The position numbers and the translations under genes are program-made. The notes beneath the pieces were generated by a model that was not told where the DNA came from, did no database searches, and saw only the letters and a list, made by a program, of their open reading frames with translations. Shown here in pieces: positions 21,933 to 22,290 of a stretch of 64,000 bases of DNA (positions are counted from its first letter, which is position 1; each line of letters opens with the position of its first letter). The stretch is taken from assembly GCF_058153355.1 (NCBI RefSeq), contig NZ_CM177019.1; one strand, given 5' to 3'.

Positions 21933-22290
21933 AAATCATACTGCCTGTGGATGTGGTGTTGTAACGTTAAATTTTTGTGCCAATCCCTGGGGATGATACA
22001 GCGGTATATTTAAACAATTTTAGCGGGAAATACTCCCAACCAGGCGCGGCGAAGAATAGTTTTTCGATTTACCGCGTTAATGCAGTCAGTATGACAGCAC
22101 CTGAAGCGCAATTTAAACGCTTATAACGTTTTAAAGCAAGAAGGGATCTAAAAACCAGAGGTATATAGCGATAAGAAATCACCAACCAGTATAAAACACT
22201 ATTTCCGTGAAAAAGACATGGCTAATCATGCGAACAAAAAATCACCAACCGTTGTAAAATCTAACGCCCGTATTTTGACTGCAAAGAAAA

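Follow-up and report, generated by a model that had tools for sequence, protein, structure and literature searches.

Genomic context of the brnQ upstream region

The window, by which we mean the whole 64-kb stretch of DNA analysed here, originates from E. coli; among 5,426 complete genomes, 5,423 match a 501-nt query along 80% or more of its length. It carries proY, brnQ, phoR and phoB in this order, all on the minus strand. The spacer between phoR and brnQ comprises 406 bp (Table 1), and the annotation of MG1655 shows no feature and no CDS in it.

The primary transcription start site (TSS) of brnQ-proY has been published in three independent maps. The table of Kim 2012 places it at U00096.2 position 418645 with a 5' UTR of 170 nt, and the same TSS at the same position was found by Cappable-seq. 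SMRT-Cappable-seq gives the start as NC_000913.3 position 419420 on a transcript covering b0401 and b0402 (brnQ and proY). By coordinate mapping U00096.2 418645 and NC_000913.3 419420 both correspond to window position 22102. In the sequence 5' of this mapped TSS we assigned by eye the hexamers of a core promoter, P1, which we read as a sigma-70 promoter and which forms a block that is invariant across genera in the multi-species alignment. A sigma-70 promoter scan of positions 21850-22420 returned no site above threshold. An Rfam scan of 21800-22500 with E-values up to 10 yielded only noise, and entries for brnQ and phoR are absent from the Adams 3'-end supplement.

Table 1. Features of the phoR/brnQ spacer and the adjoining genes, with positions as counted in the window.
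Feature	Position	Strand	Remarks
brnQ	20613-21932	-	
Primary brnQ-proY TSS	22102	-	-170 from ATG; three published maps
Putative core promoter P1	22110-22139	-	-35 TTGCTT (22134-22139), 18-nt spacer, -10 TAAATT (22110-22115)
Conserved promoter-upstream block TCTGGTTTTTAGATCCC	22143-22159	-	-41 to -57 from TSS
Lrp-consensus-like site S4 CGCTATATACCTCTG	22156-22170	-	centred near -61; 10/15 in E. coli by hand count
Proximal copy AAGAAATCACCAACCAGTATAAAA	22173-22196	+	brnQ-sense TTTTATACTGGTTGGTGATTTCTT; -71 to -94 from TSS
Lrp-consensus-like site S3 TAGTGTTTTATACTG	22187-22201	-	13/15; overlaps 10 nt of proximal copy
Invariant 33-bp block TTTTTTGTTCGCATGATTAGCCATGTCTTTTTC (brnQ sense)	22209-22241		between the two copies
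Lrp-consensus-like site S2 TCGCATGATTAGCCA	22219-22233	-	10-11/15; within invariant block
Distal copy AAAAAATCACCAACCGTTGTAAAA	22236-22259	+	brnQ-sense TTTTACAACGGTTGGTGATTTTTT; -134 to -157 from TSS
Lrp-consensus-like site S1 CGTTAGATTTTACAA	22252-22266	-	11/15, weakest of four; overlaps 8 nt of distal copy
phoR intrinsic terminator hairpin	22290-22313	-	upstream boundary of the brnQ regulatory region
phoR	22339-23634	-	

A direct repeat upstream of the brnQ promoter

The paired direct repeat described in the original prediction is present upstream of brnQ, with both copies in the same orientation. The copies match at 20 of 24 bases, including an exact 12-mer, AAATCACCAACC. Their start-to-start distance, previously given as about 64 bp, is 63 bp and corresponds to 6.0 turns at 10.5 bp per turn. 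The bases following the core differ between the copies (A/G, G/T and A/G), and the consensus (A/C)GT(A/T) written for them is inaccurate. Together the copies span -241 to -327 from the brnQ ATG and -71 to -157 from the mapped TSS. Given the position of the TSS, they are promoter-upstream DNA rather than part of the 5' UTR, and both lie downstream of the phoR terminator.

A repeat pair of this quality is unusual for one window. A pattern search allowing up to 2 mismatches returned 2 matches compared to 0.00 expected. We scanned the 64 kb for pairs that are 24-100 bp apart, agree at 20 or more of 24 bases and contain an uninterrupted match of 12 or more; only the brnQ pair and one REP-like pair passed these thresholds, and no pair did so in 40 dinucleotide-shuffled versions of the window. 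Among 5000 Markov-1 simulations of a region with the length (406 nt) and composition of the spacer, one reached 20/24 (~2e-4). Given a few thousand intergenic regions, about 0.3-0.5 such pairs per genome would be expected by chance.

The REP-like direct repeat, the sole other pair of comparable quality, contains GCCGGATGCGGC and is located at 59949-59972 and 60049-60072. The 12-mer itself has 4 matches in the window compared to 0.33 expected from shuffles. A 16-nt exact match to the proximal copy, AAGAAATCACCAACCA, was found on the plus strand at 32037-32052 within the coding sequence of rdgC (codons EEITNH), and at 133-144 a 12-mer with one mismatch lies within another coding region. These extra matches are probably coincidental.

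Copy number and variation within E. coli

BLAST searches with a 35-mer for each copy over 5,424 E. coli genomes detected no extra copies, and each 35-mer was found at a median of one place per genome; at this sensitivity a match has to be nearly exact over some 20 nt or more to be detected. We therefore rejected a dispersed repeat family. Dispersed intergenic repeats of the REP/BIME type resemble the brnQ copies in being short repeats within an intergenic spacer, whereas the brnQ copies are without palindromic structure and without Rfam hit and occupy a single place per genome each.

The 35-mer of the proximal copy was exact in 4977 of the 5424 genomes. The distal copy was exact in 3830 and carried one mismatch in 1590. 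In K-12 an A replaces the G at window position 22249, which lowers the identity of the copies to 19/24 and shortens the exact run. Since the outgroups carry A or T at the equivalent position, the G allele looks derived, which suggests that the base completing the 12-mer, carried by ~71% of E. coli, is a later acquisition. The 12-mer is broken in K-12 and in 29% of E. coli.

Conservation of the repeat across Enterobacteriaceae

A genome scan with BrnQ yielded 80 loci from different Enterobacteriaceae species, Salmonella not among them, and 76 species were compared. An alignment of the spacer from 11 species was nearly gapless from Escherichia to Pseudescherichia. Conservation of both copies in Enterobacteriaceae had been named as a check of the repeat; across the 76 species the pair is not conserved outside Escherichia. 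When aligned in the register of E. coli, the two copies share 20 of 24 bases in the window strain, 19 in K-12 and 17 in four other Escherichia species; the Citrobacter freundii group has 10-14. Other genera show 3-13, compared to a within-segment background maximum of 11-16. In the species alignment the copies occupy the least conserved columns of the spacer, and they diverge independently between species, with no concerted substitutions.

Six Escherichia sequences served to compare the rate of change of the repeated bases with that of other parts of the locus. Variable sites made up a fraction of 0.33 and 0.42 of the two 12-nt cores, the proximal core being variable at 5 of 12 sites, and 0.42 of the 4-fold degenerate sites of brnQ. 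For the invariant block this fraction was 0.06 (2/33 sites), for the promoter 0.09 and for the 5' UTR likewise 0.09. Since the cores vary like 4-fold degenerate sites, the repeated bases are evolving as neutral DNA next to strongly constrained neighbours; purifying selection on them was not seen in this comparison.

A small local duplication that inserted a second copy of the motif had been put forward as one origin of the repeat. Two same-orientation copies 63 bp apart fit such an event, and read from the sequence a weak similarity extends past the copies (TCGC..AT). However, the 33-bp block and the promoter block, which flank the proximal copy, are separated by 83 nt in all species in which both anchors could be located, and this fixed spacing rules out a duplication that added DNA. 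The nearly gapless alignment of the whole spacer also speaks against it, as does the 33-bp block between the copies, which has no duplicate and occurs once in E. coli genomes. We give this origin virtually no credence.

A copying event without change in length would be compatible with the fixed 83-nt spacing. Here a short patch would have been copied by templated repair between quasi-repeats in the ancestor of Escherichia, possibly together with Citrobacter, and would then have decayed neutrally. The identity gradient of 20, 19, 17, 14 and background tracks phylogenetic distance, and both cores change at the neutral rate; as a rough estimate, 17-20/24 would be expected from neutral decay. On the other hand, Enterobacter (L028) already has the distal core, ACGGTTGGTG, in nearly the same form, which makes this core an old one. 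The differences of the proximal core from the outgroups are scattered substitutions that ordinary drift at this rate can explain, and no branch with a burst of simultaneous changes is seen among the sampled taxa. We consider such copying unlikely.

An invariant block between the two copies

The 33-bp block located between the copies is invariant from Escherichia to Kosakonia and Pluralibacter. An ATG-initiated ORF on the opposite strand (MANHANKK..., 36 aa in the window) begins in this block and crosses the distal copy, and on the plus strand a -10-like hexamer ends each copy (TATAAA, TAAAAT). The repeat could thus belong to elements directed toward phoR, either weak divergent promoters or a small antisense ORF. 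Several observations stand against this: the promoter scan described above detected no sigma-70-like site, the MG1655 annotation is without a CDS here, and the Kim 2012 file has no TSS at 4185xx, in a search that excluded coordinates beginning with 4184. The length of the ORF ranges from 8 to 55 aa among species and its start codon is lost in some. The block is moreover fixed at all three codon positions, which argues for constraint at the DNA level rather than on coding. The antisense ORF was rejected on its variable length, the loss of its start codon and the invariance at all codon positions, and opposite-strand elements as a whole are very improbable. We likewise rejected a small ORF in the sense direction whose start lies in the invariant block, on the basis of translations made by hand and of its location 5' of the TSS.

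Phased Lrp-like sites in the spacer

Lrp had been proposed as a candidate regulator acting through the repeat. Binding of Lrp to the spacer in vitro is taken from the literature: a supplementary table of the genomic SELEX-chip study with purified Lrp (PMC5320599) assigns to brnQ-proY a peak located in the phoR>brnQ spacer at 418534, and judged from the neighbouring entries of the table the peak coordinates are of the U00096.2 type. Relative to the TSS this peak lies at -111, approximately at window position 22213, which is within the 33-bp block and between the copies. The resolution of the array is coarse, about 100 bp. In the accessible literature we found no data on in vivo occupancy by Lrp or on lrp-dependent expression of brnQ.

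The Lrp consensus used to scan the sequence was the 15-mer YAGHAWATTWTDCTR. Upstream of ilvIH, which served as positive control, it matches TAGAATTTTATTCTG at 14 of 15 positions; we take this to be the high-affinity Lrp site of ilvIH. In the brnQ spacer S3 is the best match; it is identical to TAGAATTTTATTCTG at 12 of 15 positions by hand count, and the whole 64 kb contain only 13 sites of at least 13/15. The bases that S3 shares with the proximal copy are its TATAAAA end. A score of 11/15, such as that of S1, occurs about 9 times per kb. The position of S4 scores at least 12/15 in 71% of species.

When the consensus score was averaged over the 76 species, the top three positions were 31 and 32 bp apart, and the sixth was located 33 bp further upstream. 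The sum over four sites in this phase was 42.5, compared to at most 38.1 for other spacing classes, and exceeded 500 of 500 column-permuted consensus controls, in a test which was designed post hoc, after the peaks had been seen, and which lends support without being conclusive. An Lrp motif of this kind is described in the Kroner preprint, according to which motif matches predict Lrp binding poorly or only partially.

The repeated core itself scores differently from these sites. No 15-mer lying wholly inside either copy reaches 11/15 in the consensus scan. Matches of at least 11/15 that touch the copies take in the AT-rich end alone (8-10 nt), and AAATCACCAACC contributes at most 3 bases to them. 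Judged by the consensus, the core is not Lrp-like and the TAAAA ends alone overlap Lrp-like matches.

The invariant block matches the Lrp consensus at 10-11/15 only. Such a degree of invariance goes well beyond what is usual for Lrp sites, and a further factor may act here. The conserved and probably functional elements of the region are the phased Lrp-like sites and the 33-bp block. The consensus sequences of CRP, PhoB, TyrR, sigma-54, DnaA, IHF and PurR were compared by eye with the copies and the invariant block, and none fits both sequence and spacing. The model of one paper assigns brnQ to CRP regulation without giving a site.

The arrangement resembles that of ilvIH, the textbook multi-site Lrp array. 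In both cases several degenerate AT-rich 15-bp sites lie 5' of a sigma-70 promoter (at brnQ the predicted P1), the phasing is about three helical turns (33, 32 and 31 bp at brnQ) and the target is a branched-chain amino-acid function, with in vitro binding of Lrp to the spacer in the case of brnQ. A difference is that two of the four brnQ sites match the consensus weakly in E. coli (10-11/15). The liv transport genes, whose multi-site Lrp regions the brnQ arrangement also resembles, share the physiology of brnQ, although no 12-mer common to both was seen; SELEX peaks for livJ and livK are listed in the same table, and the liv genes have been described as Lrp-controlled and leucine-responsive (PMC7373191). 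In contrast to liv, brnQ also has a conserved leader of 170 nt and is a target of GcvB. The phasing, one strong consensus match and the published in vitro binding support the brnQ region as an Lrp array.

Origin and possible function of the repeat

We favour, with moderate confidence, the view that the repeat is a lineage-specific, neutrally drifting resemblance within an Lrp-bound upstream region and not an operator pair. Most likely, Lrp would bind the four AT-rich sites S1-S4, centred near -157, -124, -92 and -61, with a phasing of ~32 bp, the spacing expected of an Lrp oligomer on several adjacent sites. We infer that S1-S4 are the actual Lrp contacts. Each copy of the repeat would then consist of the last 8-10 nt of S1 or S3 followed by a G/T-rich linker toward the next site. 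Because the copies would thus combine the tail of an odd-numbered site with a linker, their 63-bp spacing would equal two periods of the array. The exact 12-mer would sit in the linkers, the least constrained spacer DNA, and its full 12-nt run would be reached only through the derived G allele.

A number of points weigh against this interpretation. An identity of 20/24 with a 12-nt run is improbable for one region (~2e-4), and chance as an explanation needs a genome-wide multiple-testing argument. The identity gradient also fits one old copying event followed by decay, as discussed above. Lrp consensus matches are poor predictors of binding, the phasing test was post hoc and the SELEX-chip resolution is coarse. 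Finally, species-specific binding sites can function without being conserved.

Alternatively, a single regulator, which could be Lrp or a factor specific to Escherichia, might recognise both copies as a pair and control brnQ from there; separated by six turns, the two sites would face the same side of the helix. The statistical rarity of the repeat in shuffles and simulations agrees with this, as do the 6.0 helical turns between the copies, their distance from the TSS, which is typical of upstream operators, and the selection of the spacer by Lrp in vitro. Both copies are also nearly fixed in E. coli, but this is a property of any E. coli DNA. The cores, however, vary within Escherichia at the rate of 4-fold degenerate sites and are absent outside the genus although array and promoter are conserved. 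The 12-mer is already broken in a substantial part of E. coli including K-12, and the core is unlike the Lrp consensus. Paired operators therefore appear doubtful to us.

The Lrp proposal thus holds for the region, in view of the SELEX peak and the four phased, conserved consensus matches. It does not hold for the repeated 12-mer: located in linker DNA, unlike the consensus, neutral and restricted to Escherichia, the motif does not appear to be the site of Lrp. The original prediction was to be abandoned if the repeat lacked conservation in related species and no protein bound; the repeat is indeed not conserved, yet Lrp binds the region in vitro according to published data. In a further variant, the GGTTGGTGA linkers would be an Escherichia-specific addition to the conserved Lrp array. 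They would either bind a second factor or, through their sequence, position the Lrp oligomer in register on S1-S4, and occasional short-patch copying between them would keep them alike. We regard this variant as distinctly unlikely.

If the repeat is a neutral resemblance, as we favour, it matters little in itself; it illustrates that short repeats of promoter regions may stand out statistically and yet be neutral, a question quickly settled by looking at 4-fold degenerate sites for comparison. As a by-product, the analysis provides a base-level map of the brnQ-proY control region with TSS, core promoter, four phased Lrp-like sites and the 33-bp block. This is a concrete, testable architecture for a gene whose transcriptional control had previously been described at array resolution only. 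Compared to the repeat, the invariant 33-bp block and the conserved leader of 170 nt hold more promise.

Additional features of the brnQ leader

A second, weaker TSS is present in the Cappable-seq data at window position 22009 on the minus strand (-77 from the ATG, U00096.2 418738), preceded by TAAAAT; it is absent from the Kim 2012 table. Comparison with the Pho-box repeat consensus revealed a perfect half-repeat, CTGTCAT, at 22091-22097 on the minus strand. It is located just 3' of the brnQ TSS and the phoBR genes adjoin; the second half-site is poor.

The 5' UTR of 170 nt (21933-22102, minus strand) is strongly conserved and without Rfam match. A hairpin in it that we named by hand, at 22045-22076 (CGCGG..CGAA[loop]TTCG-CCGCG), is 82% paired in 24 species, with modest covariation and one compensatory UA/CG pair in 6 species. 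RNAalifold predicted no consensus structure on the 5' UTR alignment. Just 5' of the start codon, the C/A-rich CAACACCACATCCACAGGC at 21943-21961 (minus strand) is nearly invariant in 24 species. It corresponds to the expected pairing site for region R1 of GcvB, and for Salmonella, PMC9299463 lists brnQ among the verified targets of GcvB.
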